DNA from: a virus
Taxonomy: Duplodnaviria; Heunggongvirae; Uroviricota; Caudoviricetes
Strand: one strand, 5' to 3'
Length of the DNA: 17,778 nucleotides
Virus record (IMG/VR): IMGVR_UViG_2711768043_000005
Coordinates: 1-17,778 of that record
The notes below the pieces were generated by a model. It was given only the letters and a program-made list of their open reading frames with translations. It was not told the DNA's origin and made no database searches. Positions within the stretch are counted from its first letter, which is position 1; the number at the start of each line of letters is the position of its first letter. Made by a program: the position numbers and the translations under genes. This document shows positions 256 to 17,778 of this stretch, piece by piece.

Positions 256-370
256 GTTCACAGATAAAACACTCTCCAGGAAACCCGGGGCGGTTCAAAG
301 CCCTTTAAAAGAGTCACCAAAATCAGGTGCTTTGTATCTATTGGGCCATCACATATCAAATCAAGGAACA
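1..370 (+). mobile_element. Right end of an IS3-family insertion sequence; exact right boundary not determined
   Basis: Transposase 3' end followed by about 100-130 bp of non-coding sequence before the phage lysis genes. The inverted repeat cannot be placed without the left end. Confidence 0.4.
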
Positions 371-384
371 AAACAAAGTTAACA

Positions 385-2196: not shown

Positions 2197-2237
2197 TTAG
2201 CCCCCTCTTAATTGCTGTTGGTCCTCTCAGAACGAGG

Positions 2238-2269
2238 GGAAACAAAAAAGGCCGCATTAAGGCGGCCTT
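2238..2269 (-). terminator. Rho-independent terminator (minus strand) after the 198-aa gene
   Basis: Perfect 8-bp stem AAGGCCGC/GCGGCCTT (2248-2255 / 2262-2269) with a 6-nt loop, followed on the minus strand by a T-run (plus-strand A-run 2244-2249). Confidence 0.6.
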
Positions 2270-2286
2270 GGTAAGGTATAGTTTTT

Positions 2287-2883
2287 TTAAGATAAACTTT
2301 GATTGATATACTCATGACACCCAAAAATAAAGGCGTTTTGTGCATCAATAAATGACTTTTTTTCTTCCGGAGTAAAATACCCTTTTGTAAAACATACTTT
2401 TAGCGCTTTTTGAAGATCTGCCGTCAGGGTTATCAACTTACAACCTTCCTCATCAGGCCTTATTAATAGAAGTAATTTATTTTTACTTATTTCAGCGGCC
2501 TTTATTGGAACTTGAATCTCCTCAGGGAAAACACCCTTAGCCAATATATCCATATTCTTATTTCCGACCAGATGCCATTGCTCAAATGTGCTGGCCAACA
2601 TAATTACGTCTGTCACATGCTCAGCGCCAGCAAAACGTATTTGTTGCGCCAATTCTTTATTAGTATTCAAGTGAGCCTGTAATGTGGCTAAGGCAAAATT
2701 TTCTTTGATTGCCCTGTATGCAACCCAACCAGTTATTCCTGCGGCAATAACGCCTGCAAGAGCAGTAATGAGTGTTTCAAAAGGAAAGGAAGAACTGATT
2801 TCAATTGGCGGTAATTTTTCTATTACCAAGGTCAACTCGCCAGTAGTTTTTTCGAAAGCGTACGGTACGTTTTGCCAAGTCAT
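2287..2883 (-). CDS. Hypothetical membrane-anchored protein (AT-rich insert between Q-like gene and lysis cassette)
   Basis: 198 aa; AGGAGG RBS 4 nt before the ATG; one predicted transmembrane helix (LITALAGVIAAGITGWVAYRAI); markedly lower GC than neighbours; flanked by terminator hairpins on both sides. Confidence 0.7.
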   Translation of the reverse strand: MTWQNVPYAFEKTTGELTLVIEKLPPIEISSSFPFETLITALAGVIAAGITGWVAYRAIKENFALATLQAHLNTNKELAQQIRFAGAEHVTDVIMLASTFEQWHLVGNKNMDILAKGVFPEEIQVPIKAAEISKNKLLLLIRPDEEGCKLITLTADLQKALKVCFTKGYFTPEEKKSFIDAQNAFIFGCHEYINQSLS

Positions 2884-2911
2884 GAAGCCTCCTGAGTTTC
2901 AGAGGAATCAT

Positions 2912-2938
2912 AACAAAAAAACCCGCTCAATGGCGGGC
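2912..2938 (-). terminator. tR'-like terminator downstream of the Q-like gene (minus strand)
   Basis: Stem CCCGC/GCGGG (2922-2926 / 2933-2937) with a 6-nt loop, followed on the minus strand by a run of 7 T (plus-strand A-run 2914-2920). Confidence 0.5.
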
Positions 2939-2989
2939 TCTTAATGTTGTGTTGCTCAGTTCGCTTTAACGTCCCGAGCCTACCACAAT

Positions 2990-3568
2990 TTAAGCACTTT
3001 CTTGCTCACTCTGCAACTTAAATCTGTCGCTATTTGTGCCGAATGCGTCACAAACTGGAGCGTACAGGATCGATTCTGCAAGACTTAGCCAAGTGTCAAT
3101 GCGTCGACGACAGGTGATCAGCGGCCAGTCAGGATGTTTAGCCTGCAGTTCATTGGCCATCTGCAACTTGCTCTTACGAAGACGATACCGGTCAACAATC
3201 ACGCTATAGAGCGATCGGTAGTCATCATTCATCAGTACTGAAGCAATGACACCGTCCACTAACAACCCTTCTTCATCTGAACAGAACGCCAGGCCGCTTT
3301 TATTTTTGCTGTTGAGAATTTCACGCAGGTACGCTTCAAGTTCAGGCTTGGTGATACCCGCTATCTTCATCCGGCGTAGCGCTTCATTGATAGCTGTCTT
3401 GGTGATTTTCCCGGATGCCAGAAGCTGGTTAAACATGTTTCCACCACTACCACCGCCGATATAAGACCAGCGGCCCCACATGCGCAACTTGCCTTGTATC
3501 CAGATACTTTCCAGAGTACGAAGGCGAACCATTTCACCTGATTTGCCAACTTCAGAAGGATTAATCAT
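2990..3568 (-). CDS. Q-like late-gene antiterminator (Phage_antitermQ-type), tentative
   Basis: 192 aa; position directly upstream of a terminator and the lysis genes and directly downstream of a DUF968 gene, as in Qin-type prophages. The call rests mainly on synteny. Confidence 0.5.
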   Translation of the reverse strand: MINPSEVGKSGEMVRLRTLESIWIQGKLRMWGRWSYIGGGSGGNMFNQLLASGKITKTAINEALRRMKIAGITKPELEAYLREILNSKNKSGLAFCSDEEGLLVDGVIASVLMNDDYRSLYSVIVDRYRLRKSKLQMANELQAKHPDWPLITCRRRIDTWLSLAESILYAPVCDAFGTNSDRFKLQSEQESA

Positions 3569-3582
3569 TTAGCATTCTCCAC

Positions 3583-4578
3583 TTACGCCAGTACGCCTAT
3601 TGCCAGCGCACGATCGATAAAACGAAATATCAGCTCCAGCTGGGAGCCATACTTCTCTTCAAATGCCACGGTATCCGCATGCAGCTCGTCGTGATGCTTT
3701 CTGCACAAAGGCAACACAAAGAGGTCATGCGCTTTTGTACCCATTCCACCCTGACCGTGGCCTATCAGGTGGTGGGGATCATCAGCAGGCTTTCCACAAC
3801 ATGCACACGGCTGTGTCTTAACCCAGCGCGTGTACTTTTCATTAACCCAGCGGCGACGTTTCGGGCGTAACATAAAAGACTCCGGCGACTCCGGATCCAC
3901 TTTCAGCGCTAGCACCTTTTTCGCTTTATCCTGGATGATGCTGGTGGCAGGAACCAAAGGCACAAGGTCACTTTCCCGGGTGACAGACGGCACAACAGGC
4001 TTCGGTAATCTCAGAGCCTTACGGGCTGCACTTTCCGGTAAGGCATCCGCCAGGTCATTACGAACCAGCCACCAGCACAGTTCCGGCATTGTCATAACGT
4101 GACTATCATCAAAACCGAGATCCCGACGCACGACAGACAACACCCAGCGAGCACAGTTATCCGTTGCCATTGATTCCAGCCGTTCCGTGAACTGATCGCG
4201 CAGCTGGTTATCGCAGTGCCAGCACAGACGGATTGCGCCCGGAGCGTGTCGCATTGTGGTCATGTTCTCGCTGTGCCAGTCGGAATGAGGCCACTGGCAG
4301 CCTTTTTCACGAAGTAACCAGCTTTCAAGACATTCCACGCCACCAGCACGACGGATCACTGCCTCATTGCGGAACACGGCCCGAACGGCAGGATCATCCG
4401 CCAGCGGTTGTGATGCAGCCGGAACGGCACCACTGGCGAAAGATGAATAACGTTCCGGCTCAGGCTCCAGCAGGACACGCCCCTGCATAAACAGGGGCAT
4501 CAGCTCTGAACCTGGCCTGAACAATACGATCCCCATACGCGGGGCAATTTCAGGGGTCAGTAGTGCTCTCACGGTCAC
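3583..4578 (-). CDS. DUF968-family protein with C-terminal Cys/His (HNH-like) motif, YdfU-like
   Basis: 331 aa; C-terminal CACCGK...HHLIGHGQGG...CRKHHDELH motif; GTG start 2 nt after the KilA-N gene stop. Confidence 0.7.
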   Translation of the reverse strand: MTVRALLTPEIAPRMGIVLFRPGSELMPLFMQGRVLLEPEPERYSSFASGAVPAASQPLADDPAVRAVFRNEAVIRRAGGVECLESWLLREKGCQWPHSDWHSENMTTMRHAPGAIRLCWHCDNQLRDQFTERLESMATDNCARWVLSVVRRDLGFDDSHVMTMPELCWWLVRNDLADALPESAARKALRLPKPVVPSVTRESDLVPLVPATSIIQDKAKKVLALKVDPESPESFMLRPKRRRWVNEKYTRWVKTQPCACCGKPADDPHHLIGHGQGGMGTKAHDLFVLPLCRKHHDELHADTVAFEEKYGSQLELIFRFIDRALAIGVLA

Positions 4579-4579
4579 C

Positions 4580-5389
4580 TCAATGAACGGTATCGAGCAG
4601 CTTTAACAGCTCAGGGAATCGGGATTCGAAGAAGTGCGGCTGCGTCTCGCGCGGATTTGCGGGACTGGTGATGTTCTTGCCGAACATGCAGCCTTTCGCT
4701 GTCAGCGACCAGAATTTTTTGATGTTGTTAATCGCGGTACGGCTGTATCGTTCGCGTTGTTCAACGATCCCCAGCTTCGCCATCTGGTGATATGCCTGAT
4801 TAGCCGTCAGGCGGATACCATACTGTTTCAGCAGTGCACTCAGCGACAGCGTAGGGCGACTTGAGCCATCAGGCGCGTCAGCAGGAGCATCAATGGCATA
4901 GCGTGGTGCCAGATTCGGTAAGCCAACAGCCTCCTGGAGTTTCTGACAGGCCCCAAGCACAGATGAGTTAGACAGGTTTAACTCCCGGCGCATAAAGTCC
5001 AGCAGAATCACGCCAGCCTGCATCTTGTCAGCAGCCTGTCCGGATAATTTTTCAGGTGCGCTGGTTACCATATCGAAAGTACGGATCACCTTCAGATGGA
5101 ATGACGGGCTGATCCACATTGCATAGGCATACACCAGTTCTTTGCAGACATACGTTCCCCGTTCATTTCCCCCATGAATCACACTCACCGGGTCAACACC
5201 CAAATTCTGGGTGTTGGTCAATTCATGAACAAGTTCAACAGTTTGTTGGCTGGAAAGAAACTTTCCTGGCTCCTTGGTTCTGGCATTTGCACCAGATGCT
5301 ACTGCTGCGCGATGCAGATCGTTCAGGCTGTAACGTCCATAAGCATCACGACGAACTTCAATACCATCAATGACCATCAGATTATTCAT
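4580..5389 (-). CDS. KilA-N domain protein (N-terminal KilA-N, C-terminal uncharacterized domain)
   Basis: Start placed at MNNLMVIDG, preceded by AGAGGAG RBS; N-terminal region matches the KilA-N DNA-binding domain pattern by eye. The computed ORF extends 11 codons further upstream with no RBS. Confidence 0.7.
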   Translation of the reverse strand: MNNLMVIDGIEVRRDAYGRYSLNDLHRAAVASGANARTKEPGKFLSSQQTVELVHELTNTQNLGVDPVSVIHGGNERGTYVCKELVYAYAMWISPSFHLKVIRTFDMVTSAPEKLSGQAADKMQAGVILLDFMRRELNLSNSSVLGACQKLQEAVGLPNLAPRYAIDAPADAPDGSSRPTLSLSALLKQYGIRLTANQAYHQMAKLGIVEQRERYSRTAINNIKKFWSLTAKGCMFGKNITSPANPRETQPHFFESRFPELLKLLDTVH

Positions 5390-5408
5390 ACTTCGTTTCT
5401 CCTCTTGA

Positions 5409-5798
5409 TCAGGCGGCTGCACCCGCCGTTTTCTCGTACTTACTGATAGTGATCTCGACCTTCCCTTCCGGGATAACCGGTCCCCACTCCACCAGCATTC
5501 TTTTCACCTGACTGTCGTCTTCCCACACCCCCGCGTGGGTCAGGGCGTCAAACAACGCCTTGTTATAGTTGTCCAGATCGCGGATCCTGTTATCCGGAGG
5601 AAACAACACGATCTCCACTGAAGCAGGTGCCGACGTTGGTTTCGGCAGACGACGTAACTGTTCAACTATTGCTGCGCACGCCGCGCTCTGAAATTTTCGC
5701 CCCGCCGCGCTTATCAGGCTCTTACCTGCAAACGCCCCTTTGTTGGGGTGTCGCCAGTACGTGTTCACGCTGGGCGGGAAAGGCAGGATCAGCTTCAT
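5409..5798 (-). CDS. rusA: Holliday-junction resolvase RusA
   Basis: 129 aa; sequence closely resembles E. coli RusA (conserved RDLDN motif); 4-nt ATGA overlap with the upstream gene. Confidence 0.85.
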   Translation of the reverse strand: MKLILPFPPSVNTYWRHPNKGAFAGKSLISAAGRKFQSAACAAIVEQLRRLPKPTSAPASVEIVLFPPDNRIRDLDNYNKALFDALTHAGVWEDDSQVKRMLVEWGPVIPEGKVEITISKYEKTAGAAA

Positions 5799-6121
5799 AC
5801 TTTCAGGCCCCTCTTATGTAACCAGTGGGTTGCACGCAGCCTGGCGTTTTCCTCACCGGCAAGCAGTGAGCGGATAATCCCGACCGCCTCGCTGTCGTCG
5901 TCCTTCACCGCGGTATGAAGCGTGATGCCCCGGGCCACGCCACGCTTTATCGTGATGACGCCTTTTTTCTCCAGTGCGCGAAGATGCTCCACCGCTGCAT
6001 TCACTGAACGGTATCCCAGCATGGTTGCCACCTCCTGATTGGTTGGCGGGAAGCCACGTTCTTTCTGATAAGAAATCAGCATATCCAGCACCTGCTGCTG
6101 GCATTGAGTTAACGTCGTCAT
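5795..6121 (-). CDS. LexA N-terminal DNA-binding-domain-like winged-helix protein, no S24 peptidase domain
   Basis: 108 aa; residues 1-70 align by eye with the LexA DNA-binding domain (LexA: ARQQEVFDLI...[36 protein letters not shown]; here: QCQQQVLDMLISYQKERGFPPTNQEVATMLGYRSVNAAVEHLRALEKKGVITI). Confidence 0.7.
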   Translation of the reverse strand: MTTLTQCQQQVLDMLISYQKERGFPPTNQEVATMLGYRSVNAAVEHLRALEKKGVITIKRGVARGITLHTAVKDDDSEAVGIIRSLLAGEENARLRATHWLHKRGLKV

Positions 6122-6771
6122 GCCGCCATCTCCCTGACCAGTTTTTCCGCCTGCTGGCGAACCTGCGCCAGAAAGGCCTCACCACATGCCTCAAGTTCAT
6201 CGCGCCCGATATAGCTGATTGCCGATCCCTTCCAGGTCTTATCGAAAACAGCAATAGCACCAGCGAAGAAAGCGCCTGTCGGCACCTGCTTCTCATCCTT
6301 CGGGATAAACCAGACAGGCAGTTCAAAACCAATACGCCCGCGAATAAAAGCAATATGGTCTGCATCTTCCGGCCACCACACTTCGCTGGTGGCAGCTTTG
6401 ATCAGGAAAACATAACGCCCGCCCTTATCACGCATGGCACTGGCATGTTTCATGATGTAACGCATGCCGGTGATGTATTGCCCCTCATGCTGACTGGCGC
6501 GGCTGTATGGGGGATTACCAAAGGCAGCACCTTTAAGCTCCGCAAGACGTTCTGACCAGTCATGCGCCAGCGCGTTGTCTTCCGCCGTGTAATACGCAGC
6601 ACATTTGGTGTTATCACCGTCAGTGAACAGATCCAGAACAAACGGGCCAAACAGGGTGTTAATTCCCCAGAAAATGTTGTCCGGCGTGCGCCACTGATCG
6701 CCCACTTCCTTCAGTTCATGGGCTGGTTTGTTCCGCAGTTCCACCAGCGCCTGGCAATATTTATTACTCAT
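6118..6771 (-). CDS. Phage N6-adenine DNA methyltransferase (Dam-like)
   Basis: FGNPPYS motif (the N/DPPY catalytic motif of amino-methyltransferases). ATG at 6771 forms a TAATG stop/start overlap with the upstream gene; the longer ORF (GTG at 6804) would overlap that gene. Confidence 0.8.
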   Translation of the reverse strand: MSNKYCQALVELRNKPAHELKEVGDQWRTPDNIFWGINTLFGPFVLDLFTDGDNTKCAAYYTAEDNALAHDWSERLAELKGAAFGNPPYSRASQHEGQYITGMRYIMKHASAMRDKGGRYVFLIKAATSEVWWPEDADHIAFIRGRIGFELPVWFIPKDEKQVPTGAFFAGAIAVFDKTWKGSAISYIGRDELEACGEAFLAQVRQQAEKLVREMAA

Positions 6772-7265
6772 TAAGCCCCCACGTAATTCCCTGACAGATA
6801 CCACTCTTCACCCGATGCAGCGCGCTTGCTGCTTTTCCGTAAGCACCGCTCACGACGCACCAGAAAATTGTTTCGTTCTGGCTGGGAGTGGCTTTCACGG
6901 AATGCCGCCATCCACACGGTTGCAGCACGACGGTATAAGCCCCTGGACTCCAGTTCTTCAGCCTGGCGGGTCAGGCACAAAATCACCCGGGTGTCGTTAG
7001 TGCCGACATAGAAATTGCGCACAGGTCTGGTTTCACGAACTGGTTGTGGTTCCGGCTCCTGCGCTCTCTCAGTCAGGCGCGGGAAATGTCTGCGTGTATC
7101 CCCTTCACAACGGTGAGCCACACGCCCACTCTGACGTAACTTGCTTGCTGACTGCAGAACGCGCTGCCGTGAGTAACCTGCAAAAGCATCCGCAATGTCT
7201 CCGGAAGTACACCCCGGATGGGCTTCAATGAATTTCTGAACGTCATTTAACAGACTCATGATCAC
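6771..7265 (-). CDS. Winged-helix plus PerC-like domain putative transcriptional regulator
   Basis: 164 aa; C-terminal segment RGLYRRAATVWMAAF...FLVRRERCL resembles the PerC/Pch family signature (GLWRRAA..W...L.RR..C) as recalled; 4-nt overlap with the upstream O-like gene. Confidence 0.5.
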   Translation of the reverse strand: MIMSLLNDVQKFIEAHPGCTSGDIADAFAGYSRQRVLQSASKLRQSGRVAHRCEGDTRRHFPRLTERAQEPEPQPVRETRPVRNFYVGTNDTRVILCLTRQAEELESRGLYRRAATVWMAAFRESHSQPERNNFLVRRERCLRKSSKRAASGEEWYLSGNYVGA

Positions 7266-8203
7266 CCCCTGAATCCTGCCGGGATCTGGCTGTAGTCCAC
7301 GTTGTCGTAACTGGATTTGAAGTACGGGTCTTCGCGTTTTTCGGTGTACGTGCTTACGGACGGCGATAAGCGCAGGGAAAGCTCATCCCATTTTTCCCGC
7401 AGCTTCGACGGGCTGAGCACGTTACGGCACCAGAACGGATCGCGGCTGACGCGGCTGTACATCTCGCAGATTTGTTTGTGAGTACGACCATCCTGCACAC
7501 ACATCAGGCGAATTTCGTTTGCCCAGGCTGTCCAGTTCGGTTCTTTGGGACGAACCACCTCGCCGTCACATTCGGCAGCCAGCTCGTACAGGGCGATGAT
7601 TTTTTTCCAGAGCCACTGTGCGCAGGTCAAATCATCCTGCGTCCCCCACTGGCGCTTTTTAGGGCTGAATACAACCGCATCAGGATGGCGAGTTAAAAAA
7701 TCCTGTTCATCCGTCTGCGTGTCCGGTTGCGAAGCGTCCGGACGAGAAGGTTTTTTATCTGACGGATCATGTTTTGATTTTACTGACGGATCCCCGCCAG
7801 ATTCTGACGGGTGAAAACCCGCTTTTTTGCCAGATTTCGACGCATCAAATTTTGACGGGTCAGATTTTGATGCGTCAGATTTTGACGGGTCAGAATCTGA
7901 CAGTTGAGAAAATGCCGCTGCCTGAAGCTTCGCAACGTTAAGCTGATAAACATTCGACGCATTGCGGTTACCCTGGCGACGCGCCTTACGCGTTAACCAG
8001 CCTTCTGCTTCCAGCCGTGCGATAGCCGTTCTGACGGTACTCATCCCCGCGCCAATCTGACGGGCAATGGTTTCAATTGATGGCCAGCACACACCTTCGT
8101 CATTACTGAAATCAGCCAGGCGGGCCATAATTGCCACGCTGGATAATTTCATGCCTGACGCTGCGCAACCATCCCATACATAGCCGGTTAATTTAGTGCT
8201 CAT
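7262..8203 (-). CDS. Replication initiation protein, lambda O-like, with internal low-complexity linker
   Basis: 313 aa; N-terminal winged-helix-like region, central SDSDPSKSDASKSDPSKFDASKS linker encoded by a DNA iteron array, C-terminal domain; sits after the cII-like gene as O does in lambda. Confidence 0.55.
   Translation of the reverse strand: MSTKLTGYVWDGCAASGMKLSSVAIMARLADFSNDEGVCWPSIETIARQIGAGMSTVRTAIARLEAEGWLTRKARRQGNRNASNVYQLNVAKLQAAAFSQLSDSDPSKSDASKSDPSKFDASKSGKKAGFHPSESGGDPSVKSKHDPSDKKPSRPDASQPDTQTDEQDFLTRHPDAVVFSPKKRQWGTQDDLTCAQWLWKKIIALYELAAECDGEVVRPKEPNWTAWANEIRLMCVQDGRTHKQICEMYSRVSRDPFWCRNVLSPSKLREKWDELSLRLSPSVSTYTEKREDPYFKSSYDNVDYSQIPAGFRG
7836..7895. repeat. Iteron array (tandem ~15-bp repeats TTTGAYGSGTCAGAT) inside the O-like gene; putative origin of replication
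   Basis: Direct repeats at 7851-7865, 7866-7880, 7881-7895 plus a related unit at 7836-7850; further TGACGG motifs at 7760, 7784 and 7805. Confidence 0.5.
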
Positions 8204-8212
8204 GACCGACCT

Positions 8213-8551
8213 CTATTTCCCTGAATTTACGACGAAACTGTTCGAGCGGACTGAAGCACTCATGCTCATAGCCTTCGCGGAGGTAGATAACCCGTTGTGT
8301 TTCCGGTTCCCAACGAATGACTCTGACGGGCACTCCGTAGTGATCTTTGAACCAGCGGTTAACTTGTCGCAAAGGACTGTCTCCTTCTGCCGGTTGAAAT
8401 CACCCACAGCCCACTCTGCAAAGCTGTGGGTTACAATTTCCCTGTCACCTGGTACATTTACTGCATAGCAATACTCCACCTTCGCTTTTCCACCCGGTAC
8501 AGGAAGCGCAATCAGTTGCGAGCGACGGTAGTGTGTTGTTAAACTGTTCAT
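8213..8551 (-). CDS. Hypothetical protein
   Basis: 112 aa; ATGA start/stop overlap with the upstream cII-like gene and GGAGA about 10 nt upstream; no recognisable domain; an overlapping plus-strand ORF (8196-8468) makes the call uncertain. Confidence 0.4.
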
Positions 8552-9132
8552 GCGTTAGTTTCTCCACAGTCACGACACGCCACGGCGCCCGGAGCTGCAC
8601 ACTCGCGGGCGTCATTACTTTCTGAAATGCAAAAGATTTTGTAGACCAGTGCTGCATGCTCCTGCAGCTTCGAAATTGAGAGATATAGCTCGTCGTTAAT
8701 TGCTGTTTTCTCATGCGGTTCCACTACACCGTCTTCGATTGCTGAACGAATCTGTTTTGAATAACTGCCGATCTGTTCAATGACTTCCAGCAGACGCTGG
8801 TTAATATCGGCGTTGTCCACATCCTCGACGTCAGGAAGAGACACAAATACGCCATTTGCAGACTGCGCCACAGCATCAGCAATGAAGTGAGTGCCACCAG
8901 CACGCTGTAAAACCATTGCCCATCCCAGCGGGAAAATCTGATCGCCATCGGCACGAAGGCGGTTAAATAATGCGCTCTCTGTTACATCCAGCCAGTCAGC
9001 AGCTTCAGCGTAACCCCCCGGCAACGCTGCGATAGTTTTTCTGACAGCTTTCACGTACCACTTAGGCTGTTTTTCTACTTTCCAGTGATGCTTACCCACG
9101 GCTATCTCCTTAAAACTGTGGTTACTTTTCAT
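8548..9132 (-). CDS. cII-like / YdaT-like regulatory protein (start uncertain)
   Basis: Follows the cro-like gene; start placed at the first in-frame ATG (MKSNHSF) since the longer ORF overlaps cro by 80+ nt; family assignment is from memory and tentative. Confidence 0.45.
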
Positions 9133-9370
9133 CTGATGAATCTTTAATCTTTTGAAAAATATCTGGACGTAATTTTTCTTTTGATATGCCAGTGGTCTTT
9201 TCAATGAATATCGAGAGCTTTGCAGGGGGACGCTTTTCTCTGTTCAACCAGTTCCAGACATGTTGTTGCTTTACTAAATGACCGCTGCTGGCTGTGAGCT
9301 TCCGAGCCAATTCTGATTGACCACCAGCCAGAGCGATTGCCTCCGATAAGGCTAATTGCTCAGGTGTCAT
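9122..9370 (-). CDS. Cro-like HTH regulator (YdaS-type)
   Basis: 82 aa; AAGGAGA RBS before the ATG; HTH-like segment GGQSELARKLTASSGHLVKQ; divergent from the CI-like repressor across an operator-rich spacer. Confidence 0.65.
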   Translation of the reverse strand: MTPEQLALSEAIALAGGQSELARKLTASSGHLVKQQHVWNWLNREKRPPAKLSIFIEKTTGISKEKLRPDIFQKIKDSSDEK

Positions 9371-9505
9371 AGCTTTCTCCTTTTTAGGTAGTTAAGTTGT
9401 TACGAGTTGCAAGAATACAACATTAACAACTTTTATCACAACTTTTAGGTGTTGGAAAGCTAAAACATAAAGTTGTAACCTCATCAAAAAAGAGAGGGAT
9501 ATGTT
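9371..9505. promoter_or_regulatory. OR-like operator/promoter region between cro-like and cI-like genes
   Basis: Repeated GTTGT/ACAAC half-sites (AAGTTGT at 9394 and 9471; ACAACTT at 9426 and 9439). Candidate minus-strand promoter TTGTGA (9436-9441) / TATTCT (9412-9417); candidate plus-strand promoter TTGGAA (9452-9457) / TAACCT (9476-9481). Confidence 0.55.
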
Positions 9506-10192
9506 GTGAAAACACTGGCAGAACGATTAAAGATAGGTAGAGAGAAAGCTGGCATGAGCCAAGCTCAACTAGCTGAAAAAATTGGACTTTCACAACAATC
9601 TGTAGCCAAAATAGAGAATGGCGAAACTCTACAACCGCGCAAAATTAAAGAAATTGCAAAAGTTTTAGGTGTATCACAAAAGTGGTTACAACTTGGTATT
9701 GAAGACAACGCATCCATACCTGATCTTGTTGTAAAAGAAGCAGAAAGCACCGCATTAGACCCCGATATTTTCGTAAACATTCCTGTTTTAGATGTCGAGT
9801 TATCGGCAGGTAACGGATGTCTGGCTGAAATAGTTGAATCAGCTATTGACTGGTTTCCGTTAAGAAGAGCAGATTTGAGAAAATCTGGCGTATGTGCATC
9901 TAATGCCAAGATCGTAAAAATATGGGGGAACAGTTTATTACCGGTTCTCAATAATGGAGATCTTGTTGCCGTTGATATTTCTCAAACCGTTCCTATTCGT
10001 GATGGCGATCTTTATGCCGTACGAGATGGTGTATTGCTAAGGGTTAAAATACTTATCAACTTACCTGACGGTGGCTTGATTCTTAGAAGCTTCAACAAAG
10101 ATGAGTACCCAGATGAAATACTCACCTTTGAAGATAGACGAGCCAGAATTCATGTGATAGGTAGGGTATTCTGGTCATCGCGAACTTGGTAA
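9506..10192 (+). CDS. CI-like prophage repressor (N-terminal XRE-type HTH, C-terminal S24 LexA-like peptidase domain)
   Basis: 228 aa; GTG start with AGAGAGGG RBS; HTH (MSQAQLAEKIGLSQQSVAKIENGE); Ala-Gly cleavage-site context (LSAGNG); S24-like Ser (GNSLLP) and Lys (LRVK). Confidence 0.85.
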   Translation: MKTLAERLKIGREKAGMSQAQLAEKIGLSQQSVAKIENGETLQPRKIKEIAKVLGVSQKWLQLGIEDNASIPDLVVKEAESTALDPDIFVNIPVLDVELSAGNGCLAEIVESAIDWFPLRRADLRKSGVCASNAKIVKIWGNSLLPVLNNGDLVAVDISQTVPIRDGDLYAVRDGVLLRVKILINLPDGGLILRSFNKDEYPDEILTFEDRRARIHVIGRVFWSSRTW

Positions 10193-11065
10193 TGCATCGA
10201 AAAGCATTTCTTCAGAAATAATTTTAAGTTTTGCACCATTATCATCCCTATAAGATATAGCCTTTTCGATCTTCCTTCCGTGACTTGAGAATTTCCAATC
10301 ACGGGAGGAAAGCGTCCCAATTACTAAAAAATCCAACTTTTGAGTAATTCCACTACTGATGTTCCCACCAGCATTTTTAATCAAATTTTCAACTACGGCT
10401 CTCTTTCCTGCAACAAAAGTGCCTGTAAGACAATAGGTTTTACCCTCTAACTCTATCGAAGCCCCTACATCAATAGGCAGCCTGGTCGCCAAACCATCCA
10501 CCACCCCACTTTCCAAGTCACATCCTGTGAAGTCTACTAATGCCTTATGTAGAGTTAAACTCTCATCTTCAGTAATAACACCATCTTTAAGAATTTCCTT
10601 TACAAGTGCATAAAGTTTTTTTCCTGGGTAGTTGTTCTTCAAAGCTCCATTTTGCTCAAGCCACCAATTAAGATATCTTATTTCTTCTTGAGTTAAGTTC
10701 CGATCAGCAATTAATCCTTTACATAGTCCATTAAGTAAATGGACATCTACATCCTTGGAGTAAAAATCAATTTCAGGGATATCAAGAATTTCCCTCTGTA
10801 TTTGGAGAAGGCTATTTTTAAGGTCATCACGTTCTTCTGATGTGATTATTCCATCCGCAAGAATATCCGACACCCGTGCTGATAGACTTTTTATAACTCC
10901 ATTATTGATAATCTGCTTTGCTTCAAGTAACCATGTATCTAAGTAAAGAACCTCCTCTTCACGGACAACTCCATCTGCAATGATTCCATCAATGATGCTA
11001 ATCAAGTTAGCAAATAACTTGTCCCGGTTCTGTGTGTAATTAAAAGCGTAAAGCGCGTCTTCCAT
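10175..11065 (-). CDS. Protein with tandem TerB-like ADG-x-IT-x-EE helical repeats and a C-terminal BRCT domain
   Basis: 296 aa from ATG at 11065 (GGAGG RBS 4 nt upstream); four repeats of the form [IL]xDG[VI]ITxEExxxL; C-terminus GKTYCLTGTF...GGNISSGITQKLDFLVIGT...AKLKIISEEMLFDAL resembles the ligase-type BRCT fold; AT-rich; 3' end overlaps the cI 3' end by 18 bp. Confidence 0.75.
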   Translation of the reverse strand: MEDALYAFNYTQNRDKLFANLISIIDGIIADGVVREEEVLYLDTWLLEAKQIINNGVIKSLSARVSDILADGIITSEERDDLKNSLLQIQREILDIPEIDFYSKDVDVHLLNGLCKGLIADRNLTQEEIRYLNWWLEQNGALKNNYPGKKLYALVKEILKDGVITEDESLTLHKALVDFTGCDLESGVVDGLATRLPIDVGASIELEGKTYCLTGTFVAGKRAVVENLIKNAGGNISSGITQKLDFLVIGTLSSRDWKFSSHGRKIEKAISYRDDNGAKLKIISEEMLFDALPSSR

Positions 11066-11099
11066 ACAACCTCCTTTTTTTGATAATCCTTGCACTCCT

Positions 11100-11200
11100 T
11101 GGCTACTCGTTCAAACCACATAAAGTTGTTGACAACATTCAAAACCACAACTAAATTACAACTTAAAGGTGTTAAAACAACGAACAGGCAGGACGCCCAC
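11100..11200 (+). promoter_or_regulatory. OL/PL-like operator-promoter region
   Basis: Candidate promoter TTGACA (11129-11134), 17-nt spacer, TAAATT (11152-11157); operator-like motifs shared with the OR region: CATAAAGTTGT (11120 vs 9468) and ACAACTTwwAGGTGTT (11157-11172 vs 9439-9454). Confidence 0.55.
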
Positions 11201-11267
11201 GAAGTAGCCGCCGGTGGCGTATGAATGACCGGATGATTCGTTAAATACTATGTGTAAGAGAGCGCAA

Positions 11268-11471
11268 ATGAACCGTTATTTCACATGCTCGTTTTGTGGC
11301 GCAAACGAGCTGCAGGCAAAAAAAATCATCGCCAAAGGCGGAAAAGATGAAGTTGCTATCTGCTCTGAGTGCGTAGTCTTGTGTGTCGGGGCATTAATCA
11401 ATATCAGCACAACTATTCAGTTCACACCAAATGAGAATGCGCCTTTAGATGCGCGGAAATCTGGAGGTTAA
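11268..11471 (+). CDS. ClpX-type zinc-ribbon (ZBD-like) small protein
   Basis: 67 aa; YFTCSFCGANELQAKKIIAKGG...AICSECVVLC aligns by eye with the E. coli ClpX N-terminal zinc-binding domain ([32 protein letters not shown]); AAGAGAG RBS. Confidence 0.7.
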   Translation: MNRYFTCSFCGANELQAKKIIAKGGKDEVAICSECVVLCVGALINISTTIQFTPNENAPLDARKSGG

Positions 11472-11479
11472 AGAACAAA

Positions 11480-11755
11480 ATGAAAGTCCAGATTTTAAAC
11501 AATAGTGGTGAAGTCGTTTGGTCATACGACATAGCCGCTCCTGTAGATCAGAGCGGCGATAGCTGGACCAATGGAAAACATCAGATTATGGCTGGAGTTG
11601 TGTTCTCTTTACGCCGTGCTTTAGAACAGGCTGAAGTCTTTCCATCAGACCCTGAATGGAAATGGCCTTTTTCTATTTGTCCAAATTCGGAGAGTACATT
11701 TCAGAAAATTGGTCAGAAAGTCGCACTCGAAGAGCATCAGCCAACTGTTTCCTGA
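11480..11755 (+). CDS. Hypothetical protein
   Basis: 91 aa; GGAGG RBS 8 nt upstream; its 3' end overlaps the convergent 81-aa ORF, so the true stop or reality of one of the two is uncertain. Confidence 0.5.
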   Translation: MKVQILNNSGEVVWSYDIAAPVDQSGDSWTNGKHQIMAGVVFSLRRALEQAEVFPSDPEWKWPFSICPNSESTFQKIGQKVALEEHQPTVS

Positions 11756-11918
11756 TTTTTTCAGGTAACTCGTCGGCATCGCAGAAACAACAACGCTCGA
11801 TCATGTTGAAAGCCGATTCGTAGAACTGTTTTTGCTGAGTGTCGCTGAGACAGGAAAAGAGCGACGTTACGATGATTTTATTAATTGCATTATCAAGTTC
11901 TTTTTCATCAAAAGTCAT
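11673..11918 (-). CDS. Hypothetical protein (antisense to the early-left operon)
   Basis: 81 aa; AAGGAAAA RBS-like sequence before the ATG at 11918; no recognised domain. Confidence 0.45.
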   Translation of the reverse strand: MTFDEKELDNAINKIIVTSLFSCLSDTQQKQFYESAFNMIERCCFCDADELPEKIRKQLADALRVRLSDQFSEMYSPNLDK

Positions 11919-12173
11919 TTGATTTTCCTTTTATGTATACGGGCTTAAAAGGATACCACCGAGCCTGAAGTGGTGAAAAGACAGGCACATAACAGCTAAG
12001 TATTTTCAACCAAAGAGAATCCTTAGCGTTGTGGTGAATGCGGCTCAGCGCACGCGGGTTAAGGTTGAGGCTGACAGTCGACCTTCTGTGGATACCCACC
12101 CGTCTGGTGTGCAACCTTCGCCAGGCACCGGGAGGCACCCGGCACCACAACTTTATGCTGTGTGTAGTCCTGG

Positions 12174-12218
12174 CGGTACCAGTTTGTACCCTTGCTTCCG
12201 GCTGGTACCGTCCTTTTT
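12174..12218 (+). terminator. Candidate intrinsic terminator within a GC-rich non-coding island
   Basis: Perfect 9-bp stem CGGTACCAG (12174-12182) / CTGGTACCG (12202-12210), 19-nt loop, followed by TCCTTTTT. Confidence 0.45.
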
Positions 12219-12355
12219 ACAAAACAGAGAAGAGCATCACCGGACGACGGGCTCATAACCCAATCCATCCGGGCGGCTGCCACCGCAGGTGTTCTTCTCT
12301 GTTTTGTGGAGAAACTAATCGGCCTTGCAGGGTCGATATGATGAGGAGCAGCAAA

Positions 12356-12718
12356 ATGGCTAGCGAACGCAGTACTGATGTGCAGGCATTTATCGGGGAG
12401 CTGGACGGCGGCGTATTTGAAACCAAAATCGGCGCAGTTCTCAGTGAAGTCGCTTCCGGTGTGATGAACACGAAAACCAAAGGTAAGGTCTCACTCAACC
12501 TGGAAATCGAACCATTTGATGAGAACCGTGTGAAAATCAAACACAAACTCTCATATGTTCGCCCGACTAACCGTGGGAAAATTTCCGAAGAAGACACCAC
12601 CGAAACGCCGATGTATGTCAATCGCGGTGGTCGCCTGACTATTCTGCAGGAAGACCAGGGACAATTACTGACTCTTGCCGGTGAGCCTGACGGAAAACTC
12701 CGCGCAGCAGGTCATTAA
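12356..12718 (+). CDS. Hypothetical protein, YfdP-like (120 aa)
   Basis: GAGGAG RBS 7 nt before the ATG at 12356; the upstream in-frame extension to 12038 is Arg/Pro/Cys-rich and lacks an RBS. Confidence 0.6.
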   Translation: MASERSTDVQAFIGELDGGVFETKIGAVLSEVASGVMNTKTKGKVSLNLEIEPFDENRVKIKHKLSYVRPTNRGKISEEDTTETPMYVNRGGRLTILQEDQGQLLTLAGEPDGKLRAAGH

Positions 12719-12783
12719 TATCATTCTTAATTAACTAATTATTTATCTCATCACTGAATATCTTAATATAGTGAGGACTTATT

Positions 12784-13608
12784 ATGTCTCAGAACTTAGA
12801 CGCAACCGCAATTAATCAAATCCATGCCCTTATTTCTGCTCAGGGTGTTAATGAAATTATCAGTAAGATTGGTGCCGATGCTGTGGCATTGCCTGAGAAT
12901 TTCCGCATTCATGATCTGGAAAAATTTAATTTAAATCGCTTCCGTTTCCGTGGTGCGCTTTCCACTGCCAGCATCGATGACTTTACCCGTTATTCTAAAG
13001 ATCTTGCAGATGAAGGCACCCGCTGCTTTATCGATGCTGATAATATGCGTGCCGTCAGTGTGCTTAACCTGGGTACTATTGATGAACCAGGTCACGCAGA
13101 TAACACCGCCACTCTCAAACTGAAAAAGACAGCACCGTTCTCTGCCCTGTTGTCTGTTAACGGCGAGCGTAACTCCCAGAAATCACTGGCAGAATGGATT
13201 GAAGACTGGGCCGACAACCTTGTGGGCTTTGATGCTAATGGTGACGCCATTCAGGCAACAAAAGCGGCTGCGGCAATCCGTAAAATCACGATTGAAGCAA
13301 ACCAGACCGCTGATTTTGAAGATAATGACTTCAGCGGCAAACGCTCCCTGATGGAATCTGTCGAAGCGAAGACCAAAGACATTATGCCAGTGGCATTTGA
13401 ATTTAAATGCGTTCCGTTTGAAGGTCTGAAAGAACGTCCGTTTAAATTACGCCTCAGCATTATCACTGGCGATCGTCCTGTACTGGTTCTGCGCATTATT
13501 CAGCTGGAAGCGGTGCAGGAAGAAATGGCTAACGAATTTCGTGATCTGCTTGTTGAGAAATTCAAGGACAGCAAAGTAGAAACCTTTATTGGTACTTTCA
13601 CCGCCTGA
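12784..13608 (+). CDS. DUF2303-type protein, YfdQ-like (CPS-53 family)
   Basis: 274 aa, acidic; sequence and length resemble E. coli YfdQ as recalled; RBS-like GAGGA upstream. Confidence 0.7.
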
Positions 13609-13620
13609 TTTCATTACTGC

Positions 13621-13642
13621 AAATGCCCCTGCGGGGGCATTT
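13621..13642 (+). terminator. Hairpin, possible weak terminator or RNA processing site after the YfdQ-like gene
   Basis: AAATGCCCC-TGC-GGGGCATTT perfect 9-bp stem with a 3-nt loop; only a short T-stretch follows. Confidence 0.35.
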
Positions 13643-13735
13643 ATGGAAACGTAATTTACTCAATAATCGCCGGATGGTGAGGGATTCTTTTTACCAGAAT
13701 TCAGCGCGGTGCAGCGCATATACGTGGAGAACAAA

Positions 13736-14272
13736 ATGTCATTTATTAAAACTTTTTCCGGGAAGCATTTTTATTATGACAGGATAAATAAAGACGACAT
13801 CGATATTAACGATATCGCGGTTTCCCTTTCAAATATCTGTCGCTTTGCCGGTCATCTTTCGCACTTCTACAGCGTCGCCCAACATGCGGTTCTTTGCAGC
13901 CAGCTGGTGCCGCAGGAATTTGCTTTTGAAGCGTTAATGCATGATGCAACAGAAGCGTATTGCCAGGACATTCCCGCACCACTGAAACGCCTTCTTCCTG
14001 ACTATAAACAAATGGAAGAAAAAATAGACTCCGTAATCCGTGAGAAATACGGATTACCCCCAGTTATGAGTACGCCCGTGAAATATGCCGATCTCATCAT
14101 GCTGGCAACCGAACGCCGCGATCTCGGGCTTGATGATGGCTCTTTCTGGCCTGTACTGGAAGGTATCCCGGCAACAGAGATGTTCAACGTGATTCCACTG
14201 GCACCGGGCCATGCCTACGGGATGTTTATGGAACGCTTTAACGAGTTATCGGAGTTACGCAAATGCGCATGA
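13736..14272 (+). CDS. HD-domain phosphohydrolase, YfdR-like (5'-deoxynucleotidase-type)
   Basis: 178 aa from ATG at 13736 (GGAGA RBS); metal-binding H...HD motif (ALMHDATEAY) and upstream His residues. Confidence 0.7.
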   Translation: MSFIKTFSGKHFYYDRINKDDIDINDIAVSLSNICRFAGHLSHFYSVAQHAVLCSQLVPQEFAFEALMHDATEAYCQDIPAPLKRLLPDYKQMEEKIDSVIREKYGLPPVMSTPVKYADLIMLATERRDLGLDDGSFWPVLEGIPATEMFNVIPLAPGHAYGMFMERFNELSELRKCA

Positions 14273-14625
14273 ATGTTTTCGAAATGGAAGGGTTTCTTCG
14301 TGGGAGATGTGTACCGCGAGATCTGAAAGTAAATGAAACAGATGCTGAATACCTGGTGCGTAAATTCGATGCGCTTGAAGCTAAATGTGCAGCACAGGAA
14401 AACAAAGTAATACCAGTGTCAACTGAACTGCCACCAGCAAATGAAAGTGTTTTGTTATTCGATGCTAACGGAGAAGGCTGGCTAATTGGTTGGCGTTCTC
14501 TCTGGTACACCTGGGGACAAAAAGAAACCGGAGAATGGCAGTGGACATTTCAGGTCGGGGACCTTGAAAACGTCAATATCACTCACTGGGCAGTAATGCC
14601 AAAAGCACCGGAGGCTGGAGCATAA
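14263..14625 (+). CDS. Hypothetical phage protein (Trp-rich C-terminus, possibly DUF551-like)
   Basis: 120 aa; start overlaps the upstream gene stop; compact operon spacing. Confidence 0.55.
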   Translation: MRMNVFEMEGFLRGRCVPRDLKVNETDAEYLVRKFDALEAKCAAQENKVIPVSTELPPANESVLLFDANGEGWLIGWRSLWYTWGQKETGEWQWTFQVGDLENVNITHWAVMPKAPEAGA

Positions 14626-14930
14626 TGACCACTTTTACCGACAAAGAACTGATTAAAGAAATTAAAGAGCGTATCAGCAGCCTTGACGTGCGAGACGATA
14701 TTGAGCGCCGTGCTTATGAAATCGCACTCCTATCTCTGGAAGTAGAACCAGATGAACGCGAAGCTTATGAATTATTCATGGAAAAGCGTTTCGGTGACTT
14801 AGTAGATCGTCGGAGAGCAAAAAACGGCAATAACGAATACATGGCATGGGATATGACTCTCGGTTGGATCGTCTGGCAGCAACGAGCTGGTATCCATTTT
14901 TCAACAATGTCACAGCAAGAGGTGAAATAA
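14625..14930 (+). CDS. Hypothetical phage protein
   Basis: 101 aa; ATGA-type overlap with the upstream gene and 1-nt overlap with xis. Confidence 0.55.
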   Translation: MTTFTDKELIKEIKERISSLDVRDDIERRAYEIALLSLEVEPDEREAYELFMEKRFGDLVDRRRAKNGNNEYMAWDMTLGWIVWQQRAGIHFSTMSQQEVK

Positions 14931-15280
14931 TGGAGCCATACAGCCTCACACTCGATGAGGCCTGTCATTTTCTCAAGATATCCAGACCGACTGCCATTAA
15001 CTGGATACGCACAGGGCGTCTTCAGGCAACACGCAAAGATCCCACTAAGAATAAATCTCCTTACCTCACAACACGACAAGCCTGCATTGCGGCTCTTCAG
15101 TCTCCGCTGCATACTGTCCAGGTGAGCGCGGGTGATGGCATAACAGAGGAAAGAAAATGTCACTCTTCCGCAGAGGTGAAATATGGTACGCCAGTTTCAC
15201 ATTGCCGAACGGTAAAAGATTTAAACAGTCTCTTGGAACAAAGGACAAAAGGCAGGCGACAGAACTCCATGACAAGCTAA
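14930..15280 (+). CDS. xis: Excisionase-like HTH protein (AlpA/Xis type)
   Basis: N-terminus [28 protein letters not shown] is a typical excisionase/AlpA HTH; immediately upstream of and overlapping int by about 124 nt in another frame; 3' end uncertain. Confidence 0.55.
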
Positions 15281-16320
15281 AGGCTGAAGCATGGCGGGTC
15301 AGCAAACTTGGTGAAATACCTGATATAACGTTCGAGGAAGCGTGTGTCAGGTGGCTTGAAGAGAAAGCACATAAAAAATCACTGGACGATGACAAAAGCC
15401 GGATCGGATTCTGGCTTCAACATTTCGCAGGAATGCAACTAAGAGACATTACTGAATCAAAAATTTATTCAGCAATGCAGAAAATGACGAACCGGCGTCA
15501 TGAGGAAAACTGGAAACTCAGGGCAGAAGCATGCAGAAAAAAAGGGAAACCTGTTCCAGAATACACGCCAAAACCAGCGTCCGTTGCAACGAAGGCTACG
15601 CATCTTTCATTTATAAAGGCCCTACTAAGAGCCGCAGAGCGTGAATGGAAAATGCTGGATAAGGCACCAATTATTAAAGTGCCTCAACCAAAGAATAAAC
15701 GGATCCGCTGGCTGGAGCCCCATGAAGCACAAAGGCTGATTGATGAATGTCCGGAGCCATTAAAGTCTGTTGTTGAATTTGCACTGGCAACAGGCTTAAG
15801 ACGCTCGAACATCATCAACCTTGAATGGCAACAAATAGATATGCAGCGCCGGGTGGCATGGATAAACCCGGAAGAGAGTAAATCAAACCGCGCAATTGGC
15901 GTTGCGCTGAATGATACTGCATGTCGCGTATTGAAAAAACAAATCGGGAATCATCACCGTTGGGTATTTGTGTACAAGGAAAGCTGTACCAAACCAGACG
16001 GAACGAAAGCGCCAACAGTAAGGAAGATGCGGTATGACGCAAACACAGCCTGGAAAGCGGCGCTGAGACGGGCTGGTATTGATGATTTCAGATTTCACGA
16101 CTTGAGACACACCTGGGCAAGTTGGCTGGTTCAAGCCGGAGTCCCGTTGTCAGTTTTACAGGAAATGGGAGGCTGGGAGTCTATCGAAATGGTTCGTCGA
16201 TATGCTCACCTTGCACCTAATCACCTTACCGAACACGCACGGCAAATAGACTCGATCCTGAACCCATCGGTCCCAAATTTGTCCCAGTCAAAAAATAAGG
16301 AAGGTACTAATGATGTGTAA
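15157..16320 (+). CDS. int: Tyrosine-type site-specific integrase
   Basis: 387 aa; C-terminal catalytic region [39 protein letters not shown] (R..H..Y signature); abuts the tRNA 3' end. Confidence 0.9.
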
Positions 16321-16334
16321 CTTATTGATTTTAA

Positions 16335-16410
16335 TGGTGCCGATAATAGGAGTCGAACCTACGACCTTCGCATTACGAATGCGCTGCTCTACCAACTGAG
16401 CTATATCGGC
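16335..16410 (-). tRNA. thrW: tRNA-Thr (anticodon CGU)
   Basis: Minus-strand 76-nt sequence GCCGATATAGCTCAGTTGGTAGAGCAGCGCATTCGTAATGCGAAGGTCGTAGGTTCGACTCCTATTATCGGCACCA with D-loop, anticodon loop TTCGTAA, T-loop GGTTCGA and CCA end. Confidence 0.9.
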
Positions 16411-16524
16411 CCTGAAAGGACATGTTCACAAACGTGAATCACGGTGGACAAGGTTAAAACTAACCGGGCGATGCGTCAATGGCCTTGTGAATCAAATGGC
16501 TACTTTTGCATCACCCGGTTTTAT

Positions 16525-17778
16525 TTACGCACGAATGGTGTAATCACCAATGCCGATCCACTTGTAAGTGGTCAGTGCTTCCAGCCCCATTGGGCCACGC
16601 GCGTGGAGTTTTTGTGTGCTTACCGCCACTTCCGCACCCAGACCAAACTGGCCGCCGTCGGTAAAACGCGTAGAGGCGTTAACGTAAACAGCGGACGAAT
16701 CCACTTCGTTAACAAAACGCTGGGCGTTGCGCATATCGCGGGTCAGGATCGCATCGGAGTGTTGTGTGCCGTGTTCACGAATATGGGCGATGGCATCGTC
16801 AAGATCGCTGACGATTTTGACGTTCAAATCTAATGACAGAAACTCATCGTCATACTCTTCGGCTTTAACAGCAACCACCTTCGCAGGGCCTGCCTGCAAC
16901 TGCGCCAGTGCAGCTGCATCTGCGTGTAATGTCACGCCGCTTTCCGCCATTTGTTTGCTTAATGCGGGCAGGAAGCTATCGGCGATGTTTTTATTCACCA
17001 GCAACGTTTCAACCGTATTACATGTGCTCGGACGCTGAGTTTTCGCGTTGACGATCACTTTTAATGCTTCAGCGATCTCTACACTTTCATCAACGTAAAT
17101 ATGGCATACGCCTATACCACCTGTGATCACCGGGATTGTCGACTGTTCACGGCACAGTTTATGCAAACCAGCGCCACCACGCGGGATCAGCATGTCGATG
17201 TATTTATCCATACGCAGCATTTCACTGACCAGCGCACGGTCAGGATTATCAATCGCCTGCACGGCACCCGCCGGTAAGCCGCAGGATTTCAGGGCGTCCT
17301 GAATCACCGCCACCGTTGCAGCGTTAGTGCGACACGTTTCTTTGCCACCGCGCAGGATCACCGCATTACCGGTTTTCAGGCACAGCGAAGCGACATCAAC
17401 CGTCACGTTCGGGCGCGCTTCATAAATCACGCCAATAACCCCCAGCGGTACGCGACGACGCTCAAGACGCAGGCCGCTGTCCAGTACGCCGCCATCGATT
17501 ACCTGCCCCACCGGATCGGCGAGGTTGCACACCTGACGTACATCGTCGGCAATGCCTTTCAGCCGTGCGGGCGTCAGTGCCAGACGGTCAAGCATCGCTT
17601 CGCTAAGGCCATTGGCTCGCGCGTCAGCAACATCCTGGGCGTTAGCGTTGAGGATGATTTCGCTTTGTGCTTCCAGTTCATCGGCGATTTTTTCCAGCAC
17701 GCGATTTTTTTCGCGGCTGGAGAGTTGCGCTAATTTATACGAGGCTTGCTTCGCGGCAATGCCCATTTGTTCCAGCAT
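16525..17778 (-). CDS. proA: Glutamate-5-semialdehyde dehydrogenase (gamma-glutamyl phosphate reductase)
   Basis: 417-aa ORF starting exactly at the window end ([21 protein letters not shown]...) and ending ...GDYTIRA; recognised as enterobacterial ProA. Confidence 0.95.

Follow-up and report, generated by a model that had tools for sequence, protein, structure and literature searches.

Predicted OR and OL control regions of a lambda/434-type immunity switch in an Escherichia coli prophage

What defines the immunity specificity of the prophage carried on IMG/VR virus record IMGVR_UViG_2711768043_000005 (Caudoviricetes)? The window considered here is the whole stretch of DNA analysed, 17,778 nucleotides corresponding to positions 1 to 17,778 of that record. 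It is an E. coli prophage of the SfV/CPS-53 type, integrated beside tRNA-Thr (thrW) and proA, and is 99.9% identical to a region of E. coli strain 1409. A first-pass annotation had proposed that two operator regions with the same motifs, one between cro and cI and the other upstream of a PL-like promoter, set this specificity by the OR/OL logic of lambda. The analysis described below upholds the core of this proposal. Positions 9371-9505 and 11066-11180 very probably represent OR and OL of a CI-Cro switch of the lambda/434 type, with binding sites predicted from the sequence.

The cro-like gene (9122-9370, minus strand) encodes 82 aa with a YdaS-type helix-turn-helix (HTH; Pfam YdaS_toxin, E 7.8e-15), and cI (9506-10192, plus strand, GTG start) encodes 228 aa with the Pfam domains HTH_3 and Peptidase_S24. 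The two genes diverge from a spacer of 135 bp, the control region 9371-9505, and a divergent HTH/S24 repressor and cro around a short spacer are the arrangement of a lambdoid switch. A BRCT-domain accessory gene (10175-11065, minus strand, 296 aa, Pfam BRCT) follows cI. To its right lies a second spacer of 184 bp that includes the OL control region 11066-11180, and beyond it the early-left operon runs rightward from a ClpX-zinc-finger gene at 11250 to the integrase gene. The distance between OR and OL is about 1.7 kb.

A 15-bp dyad in both control regions

The shared strings quoted in the first-pass annotation are all present at the places given for them. CATAAAGTTGT occurs at 9466-9476 and 11119-11129, ACAACTTttAGGTGTT starts at 9438 and ACAACTTaaAGGTGTT at 11158, and the two 16-bp elements are ACAACTTTTAGGTGTT (9438-9453) and ACAACTTAAAGGTGTT (11158-11173). 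The word common to both spacers is the 12-mer ACATAAAGTTGT, which has a reverse-complement copy at 12147. On its own this 12-mer is moderately unusual, as at least 12 shared bases were obtained in 13 of 2000 shuffles of the two spacers and in 7 of about 1740 pairs of random window segments. The enrichment of half-sites is the stronger signal. ACAACTT/AAGTTGT has eight copies in the 17.8-kb window, six of them within the 319 bp of the two spacers where 0.04 are expected (Poisson P ~3e-12), and outside both spacers its frequency equals the random expectation. The multiple GTTGT/ACAAC half-sites that had been noticed are likewise real; the two spacers hold 11 of them against 0.88 expected (P ~3e-9), and some fall inside inferred promoters.

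These motifs resolve into a 15-bp dyad, ACAnC-N5-GnTGT, with the ideal form ACAACTTnAAGTTGT. When the dyad was searched as ACAACTTNAAGTTGT with up to three mismatches, the window gave seven matches against 0.82 expected. Five of the matches have at most two mismatches, namely four sites in the spacers and one at 12147-12161, and no other repeated dyad was found in either spacer. Dyad search, position-weight scan and conservation all identify the same four spacer sites, which fall into two classes. The strong class, ACAACTTwwAGGTGT, comprises O_R-a (ACAACTTTTAGGTGT, 9438-9452) and O_L-b (ACAACTTAAAGGTGT, 11158-11172); it combines one ACAAC half with one ACACC half, the latter being ACAyC in its general form. 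The weak class comprises O_R-b (AAAACATAAAGTTGT, 9462-9476) and O_L-a (ACCACATAAAGTTGT, 11115-11129), which contain the CATAAAGTTGT word; their right half is good and their left half is degenerate (AAAAC or ACCAC). O_R-a and O_R-b are 24 bp apart, and O_L-a and O_L-b 43 bp. Over 16 distinct site sequences A1, C5, G11 and T13-G14-T15 are invariant, C2 and A3 nearly so, and position 4 is variable. In a position-weight scan of the window the four sites score 19-23 bits, and apart from 12147 nothing else exceeds 11.6 bits.

The repressor fits such a site. The best solved relative of the CI N-terminal domain is the 434 repressor (E 4.2e-13; GLSQQSVAKIENG in CI aligned with GTTQQSIEQLENG in 434). 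The CI recognition helix, QQSVAK, keeps the Gln-Gln-Ser start of 434 (Gln28-Gln29-Ser30), which is also conserved among seven diverse CIs with the two glutamines invariant, and carries Lys at the position of 434 Gln33. In 434 complexes the glutamines of the recognition helix read the outer ACA. A 434-like QQS helix thus fits the invariant outer ACA/TGT of the predicted sites. The S24 domain has an Ala-Gly site (LSA/GNG), Ser143 and Lys181, as expected for RecA-stimulated self-cleavage. In one relative, from Serratia microhaemolytica (locus L005, ~4280-4310), the LSAGNG stretch, and with it the presumed Ala-Gly site of self-cleavage, is missing from CI, so that this repressor may not be SOS-cleavable.

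Conservation was examined in 87 related loci from E. coli, Serratia, Proteus and Providencia, with CI identities of 58-100%. The first-pass annotation had suggested a motif search across related prophages, and the outcome is that all four sites keep their position and spacing in 87 of 87. Relative to the cI start, the position-weight scan puts one pair at -68/-44, with a spacing of 24 bp that becomes 25 bp in Proteus and Providencia. Beyond the BRCT gene it finds another pair, spaced by exactly 43 bp, and hardly anything else in these loci scores. An alignment of 45 distinct OR and 55 distinct OL sequences gives a footprint in which operators and promoter hexamers are conserved and the spacers keep their length while varying in sequence. 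In O_L-b the degenerate half lies on opposite sides in different lineages (ACAAC..GGTGT vs ACACC..GTTGT) with the dyad retained. The cassette is present in 72 of 5426 complete E. coli genomes (~1%, counting 87%- and 73%-identical variants), in species representatives of Serratia, Proteus and Providencia, in an assembly labelled Pseudomonas lundensis, and on 80 IMG/VR contigs. No CI more than 45% identical was found in the phage collection searched, where the best match is 44.5%. The Pseudomonas lundensis I31 locus lies on a 760-kb contig and is a typical enterobacterial cassette (CI 71%, Cro 74% and BRCT protein 77% identical) that has both the four sites and the conserved element following PL; it reflects either a mislabelled or contaminated assembly or a recent transfer.

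The limits of the cassette are seen by comparison with SfV, SfII and SfIV, thrW-integrating Shigella/E. coli phages that share the backbone of the window and, at 91-100% identity, the sequence flanking the cassette on either side. Their left flank carries cII/ymfL, represented in the window by a cII/ymfL-like gene at 8548-9099 on the minus strand, and their right flank a conserved 62-nt element and the yfdP-yfdT genes. SfV and SfII match the window on the left up to ~9110, just beyond cro as the leftmost gene of the cassette, and on the right from ~11178-11181, about 6-9 bp after the end of O_L-b, at 88-100% identity. Between these flanks they have another cro, another cI and other repeated words at the same positions, GTAC-rich repeats such as TGTACC in SfV and TTGCGCAA/TCACGCAA-type words in SfII. 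The four-site dyads were not found in the OR/OL regions of either phage. All three phages are heteroimmune and have no BRCT gene. The exchangeable immunity cassette thus extends over ~9111-11180 and comprises cro, OR, cI, the BRCT gene and OL. The next-closest phage CI, which is 41% identical, comes from an Stx1 phage and has the helix SQPAIQK, is likewise accompanied by other repeats, of the ATAAC/GTTAT type. Since SfV, SfII and this more distant CI all have other repeats, the sites travel with the present cI/cro pair; sequence comparison shows that they are inherited with cro, cI and the BRCT gene as one cassette, which mosaic phages exchange as a whole.

The claim that the motifs define immunity specificity is thus supported, in that the operator words change with the repressor allele and, within this CI family, the sites persist at identities as low as 58%. 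The objection that the motifs could be common background words was raised by the first-pass annotation itself. It is answered by the random frequency of the half-site elsewhere in the window and by its absence from the SfV/SfII OR/OL regions.

Promoters, the predicted switch and the BRCT gene

The PL-like promoter on the plus strand consists of TTGACA (11129-11134), a 17-bp spacer and TAAATT (11152-11157). With a 10/12 consensus match it is the only strong sigma-70 match of the promoter scan in 9000-11600. Its -35 is kept in 83 of the 87 loci, and its 33 distinct spacer sequences are all 17 bp long. It drives the early-left operon from the ClpX-zinc-finger gene through integrase. Three further promoters are inferred from conserved hexamers. 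PR, which would serve cro on the minus strand, has the -35 TTGTGA (9441..9436), an 18-bp spacer and the -10 TATTCT (9417..9412); its hexamers are conserved, the -10 being TATAAT in 53 of the 87 loci, and the spacer is fixed at 18 bp in 18 distinct sequences. PRM, for cI on the plus strand, has the -35 TGGAAA (9453-9458), identical in 86 loci, a spacer of 17 bp (18 bp in two loci), and the -10 TAACCT (9476-9481), which is TAAyCT, TAAAAT or TAGTCT across the set. The inferred promoter of the BRCT gene, on the minus strand, has the -35 TTGAAC (11114..11109), a 17-bp spacer and TGc followed by AAGGAT (11094..11086); the hexamers are conserved and the spacer is always 17 bp, in 25 distinct sequences.

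The operators overlap or abut core elements of PL, PR and PRM. O_R-a is centred at about -40 for PR and -43 for PRM and overlaps the PR -35 by 4 bp, and O_R-b sits inside the PRM spacer, touching the -10. O_L-b starts directly after the PL -10 and covers the PL start site. O_L-a is flanked by two -35 elements, those of PL and of the BRCT promoter, and ends on the first base of the PL -35. The -35 of the BRCT promoter abuts O_L-a exactly as the PRM -35 abuts O_R-a, with the centre of O_L-a at about -43, so that both promoters have an identical layout of 15-bp site, hexamer, 17 bp and hexamer.

Several half-sites have no dyad partner. The AAGTTGT at 9394-9400, at about +6 to +12 of inferred PR, has an invariant core AGTTGT and lies 52 bp from O_R-a, start to start (53 bp in one locus). 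As a third full OR operator it was rejected, because the partner half is not conserved and a score of at least 13 bits is reached in only 2 of the 87 loci. ACAAC words at 9417-9421 and 9426-9432, both within inferred PR, and at 11147 are also conserved without a partner. In most lineages the GTG start codon of cI lies within AAGTTGTG (ATGTTGTG in the window, at 9500-9508), so that one more copy of the half-site overlaps it.

From this geometry a scheme of regulation can be proposed. A CI dimer would recognise the 15-bp dyad ACAnC-N5-GnTGT, and at low CI the strong sites O_R-a and O_L-b would fill. Both lytic promoters would then be shut, PR through its -35, which O_R-a overlaps, and PL through its start site, which lies under O_L-b. 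CI at O_R-a, at about -43 of PRM, would stimulate cI transcription, like CI at OR2 in lambda and 434. Once CI is abundant, O_R-b, the weak site within the PRM spacer, would be occupied as well and would limit transcription of cI, giving negative autoregulation. CI at O_L-a probably helps to close PL, since this site is in helical phase with O_L-b at 43 bp, and in lysogens it may activate the BRCT accessory gene. Cro would presumably compete with CI for these sites, and RecA-stimulated self-cleavage of CI would lift repression.

A number of points weigh against this scheme. The role of O_L-a in repression is uncertain, because its overlap with the PL -35 is only 1 bp, and the argument for activation by CI is purely geometric. 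PR, PRM and the BRCT promoter are weak consensus matches that the generic scan missed, and they were placed solely by conservation. The position-weight matrix scores the very sites from which it was derived, and many of the 87 loci are closely related, with about 15-20 independent lineages among them. Finally, two full dyads per region together with invariant half-sites at 9394, 9417, 9426 and 11147 do not fit a model of one dimer per dyad.

A more specific reading of the layout is tentative. It holds that CI at O_L-a activates a second lysogenic promoter, that of the BRCT gene, which is convergent into cI, and that the lytic promoters are closed by in-phase bracketing pairs (43 bp at PL; 52 bp between O_R-a and the half-site at PR) and not by adjacent operators. 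The first-pass annotation had suggested that the promoter of this gene may be under repressor control. The conserved promoter next to an OL site agrees with that suggestion, but the PRM-like geometry points to activation or lysogenic expression more than to repression.

The same annotation had placed a TerB/BRCT gene between cI and OL. The position and the BRCT domain hold (Pfam E 1.3e-6, residues 206-290; Foldseek matches to the BRCT domains of LigA, RFC1 and XRCC1), but the TerB label is unsupported, as the N-terminal 181 aa give no Pfam TerB match even at E values up to 10 and Foldseek against the PDB returns BRCT domains only. The protein has a helical N-terminal region with four DG-x-x-T/S-x-EE repeats and a C-terminal BRCT domain, in an AF2 model of moderate confidence (pLDDT 71.6). 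It corresponds to phrog_3989, a family of unknown function, and across Enterobacterales source records name it only 'BRCT domain-containing protein' or mislabel it as DNA ligase. No description of the combination BRCT, prophage and TerB was found in the literature searched. Assignment to a known defence system was also rejected, since all that PADLOC returned was a weak, incomplete match to a candidate system, PDC-S48 (E 2.4e-7).

By tblastn the BRCT gene is present in the cassette of all relatives except one lineage. In E. coli FDAARGOS_1058 (locus L007, 4573-4740) and 15 other loci its interior is deleted, with both ends left and OL intact, and in this lineage of 16 loci the promoter hexamers have decayed (TGCAAGGAT to GGCAAGGGT). 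A homologue, orf2, adjoins cI in Vibrio phage K139 (33% identity over 95% of the length) and lies in the lysogenic cI-orf2-glo-int operon; the K139-family paper does not describe a function for orf2. K139 is like the present prophage in having this gene directly beside cI. It differs in being P2-like, in that orf2 is co-directional and co-transcribed with cI, and in its unrelated operators, and none of the four-site dyads was found in it. At 10175-10192 of the window the 3' ends of cI and the BRCT gene converge with an 18-bp overlap, the same in the relatives checked, and a convincing terminator was not found at this junction. Convergent transcription could couple the expression of the two genes.

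A rival reading of OL is that CI represses the BRCT promoter and that the gene is an early lytic function not expressed in the lysogen. The promoter stands back-to-back with PL and has O_L-a in common with it, UP-element or alpha-CTD contacts can be blocked by a repressor that sits just upstream of a -35, and two in-phase bracketing sites could close both promoters. However, O_L-a does not overlap the core hexamers, and its placement is identical to that of O_R-a at PRM. A -10 as weak as AAGGAT is typical of promoters that depend on an activator, the K139 homologue is transcribed together with cI, and accessory genes expressed in lysogens usually lie next to cI. Repression at this promoter is possible and rather doubtful. 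The K139 operon, the weak -10 and the decay of the hexamers where the gene is deleted favour expression of the BRCT gene in lysogens.

Binding by other regulators and comparison with known switches

The sites might be bound only by Cro or by another regulator of phage or host, with CI recognising something else. The Cro protein shows a weak match to the all-alpha Cro 3BD1 and belongs to a different fold class; the start of its recognition helix, KQQHVWNW, also carries Gln-Gln. The sites are co-inherited with cro as much as with cI, and isolated half-sites in the same orientation might suit a different binding mode. Set against this are the 434-type QQS helix of CI and the invariant outer ACA/TGT bases, the absence of any other repeated dyad from either spacer, and the sharing of operators by CI and Cro in characterised lambdoid switches, which together make binding without CI improbable. 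That the shared words are due to chance, compositional bias or relics of an old duplication, and have no regulatory function, is already close to refuted and very improbable: two AT-rich spacers share a 12-mer in ~0.5% of shuffles and the fifth good match at 12147 lies in unrelated sequence, but against this stand the half-site enrichment (P ~3e-12), a position and spacing that stay fixed in all 87 loci, even at 58% CI identity, with changing spacer sequences, the absence of the sites from heteroimmune relatives with identical flanks, and a degenerate half of O_L-b that swaps sides with the dyad retained.

Recognition of the four dyads by CI remains the preferred reading, and among known systems 434 is the nearest. 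The N-terminal domain of CI has its nearest solved relative there, the Gln-Gln-Ser and the outer ACA...TGT are alike, and 434 likewise has divergent cI and cro, a second operator set at PL and one operator abutting the PRM -35. To judge from titles in the reference list of PMC3317979, the 434 repressor activates 434 PRM. The operators of 434 are 14 bp long, ACAA-N6-TTGT (PMC1636474), whereas those predicted here have 15 bp with one extra central base pair, position 4 free and position 5 fixed. The first-pass annotation had called the operator sequence a different one; this is so for its length, but the outer ACA/TGT is the same as in 434. Further differences from 434 are a Lys at the Gln33 position, two full operators in each region where 434 has three (OR1-3, OL1-3), a Cro of the YdaS/all-alpha type that is not a homologue of 434 Cro, and the extra convergent BRCT gene between cI and OL. 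434 is not among the top phage CI matches listed.

The likeness to lambda is one of organisation. Both have a cleavable CI (HTH and S24) and Cro, dyad operators that overlap PR, PRM and PL, 24 bp between adjacent OR sites, a site at about -42/-43 of PRM for activation and a weaker site over PRM for negative autoregulation, the last two roles being predicted for the present sites. The distance between OR and OL in lambda is comparable to that seen here. In contrast, lambda operators have 17 bp and another sequence, and its PL is covered by adjacent sites whereas here it is bracketed by two sites 43 bp apart. The accessory gene here has its own promoter at OL; rexAB is transcribed from PRM. P22 has three operators per region. 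So do lambda and 434, whereas each region of the present prophage holds two full dyads; the lambda-like OR/OL logic that was proposed is thus borne out by the same dyads at the cro-cI spacer and at PL, though not in the number of operators. With its 434-like reading head, 15-bp operator and 2+2 layout, the cassette is predicted to be a new immunity specificity of the lambda/434 kind. No description of the 15-mer operator sequences was found in the literature searched.

Neighbouring elements and significance

Directly downstream of PL and O_L-b, at 11178-11241 on the plus strand, lies the conserved element of ~62 nt mentioned above. It is common to the heteroimmune phages SfV, SfII, SfIV, ST64B, ZF40, mEp460 and phiNP and occurs in 53 phage records, in nearly all of which it is unannotated. 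Its fold has an outer stem and an inner hairpin, and compensatory changes occur in both. The stem pairs are CCGG/CCGG, CCTGG/CCAGG, CCCGA/TCGGG, CCCCA/TGGGG and CCGAT/ATCGG, further pairing alternates between ACGAA..TTCGT and GCGAA..TTCGC, and the loop GGCRTAYGAA is conserved. The element matches no Rfam family. It stands where putL or nutL would be, and an N gene was not identified downstream of PL, so that it may be an uncharacterised antitermination or leader RNA. Identity with HK022 put was rejected, as its primary sequence shows no similarity to the part of HK022 in which PL and put are expected.

Further to the right, 12006-12221 on the plus strand matches Rfam STnc100 at E 8.6e-7, with 39.5 bits where the gathering score is 47. 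RefSeq labels it 'frameshifted hypothetical protein', and it is probably a small RNA gene rather than a broken coding sequence. Inside this STnc100-like region lies the fifth operator-like dyad, ACAACTTTATGCTGT (12147-12161, 17.4 bits). It was rejected as a third operator region, since the segment falls within the STnc100 match and is unchanged in SfV (100% identity) and 97-98% identical in further heteroimmune phages. Its presence in SfV and SfII makes it incidental to immunity; CI might still bind it incidentally.

The analysis sets out the exact extent of the exchangeable cassette, with its operators and promoters, for an immunity type found in ~1% of complete E. coli genomes and in many other Enterobacterales but in no isolated phage of the collection searched. 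It predicts which prophages are homo- or heteroimmune. The predicted repressor-operator pair, being related to 434, would be useful for studies of the recognition code and of half-site spacing, and may serve as an orthogonal switch part. The analysis also points to a conserved, uncharacterised BRCT gene that travels with the repressor and may be activated by it. To our knowledge no characterised lambdoid switch has a repressor that activates an accessory gene from OL. If the tentative reading of O_L-a is true, the repressor of these prophages would directly activate a candidate host-benefit or defence gene from OL.

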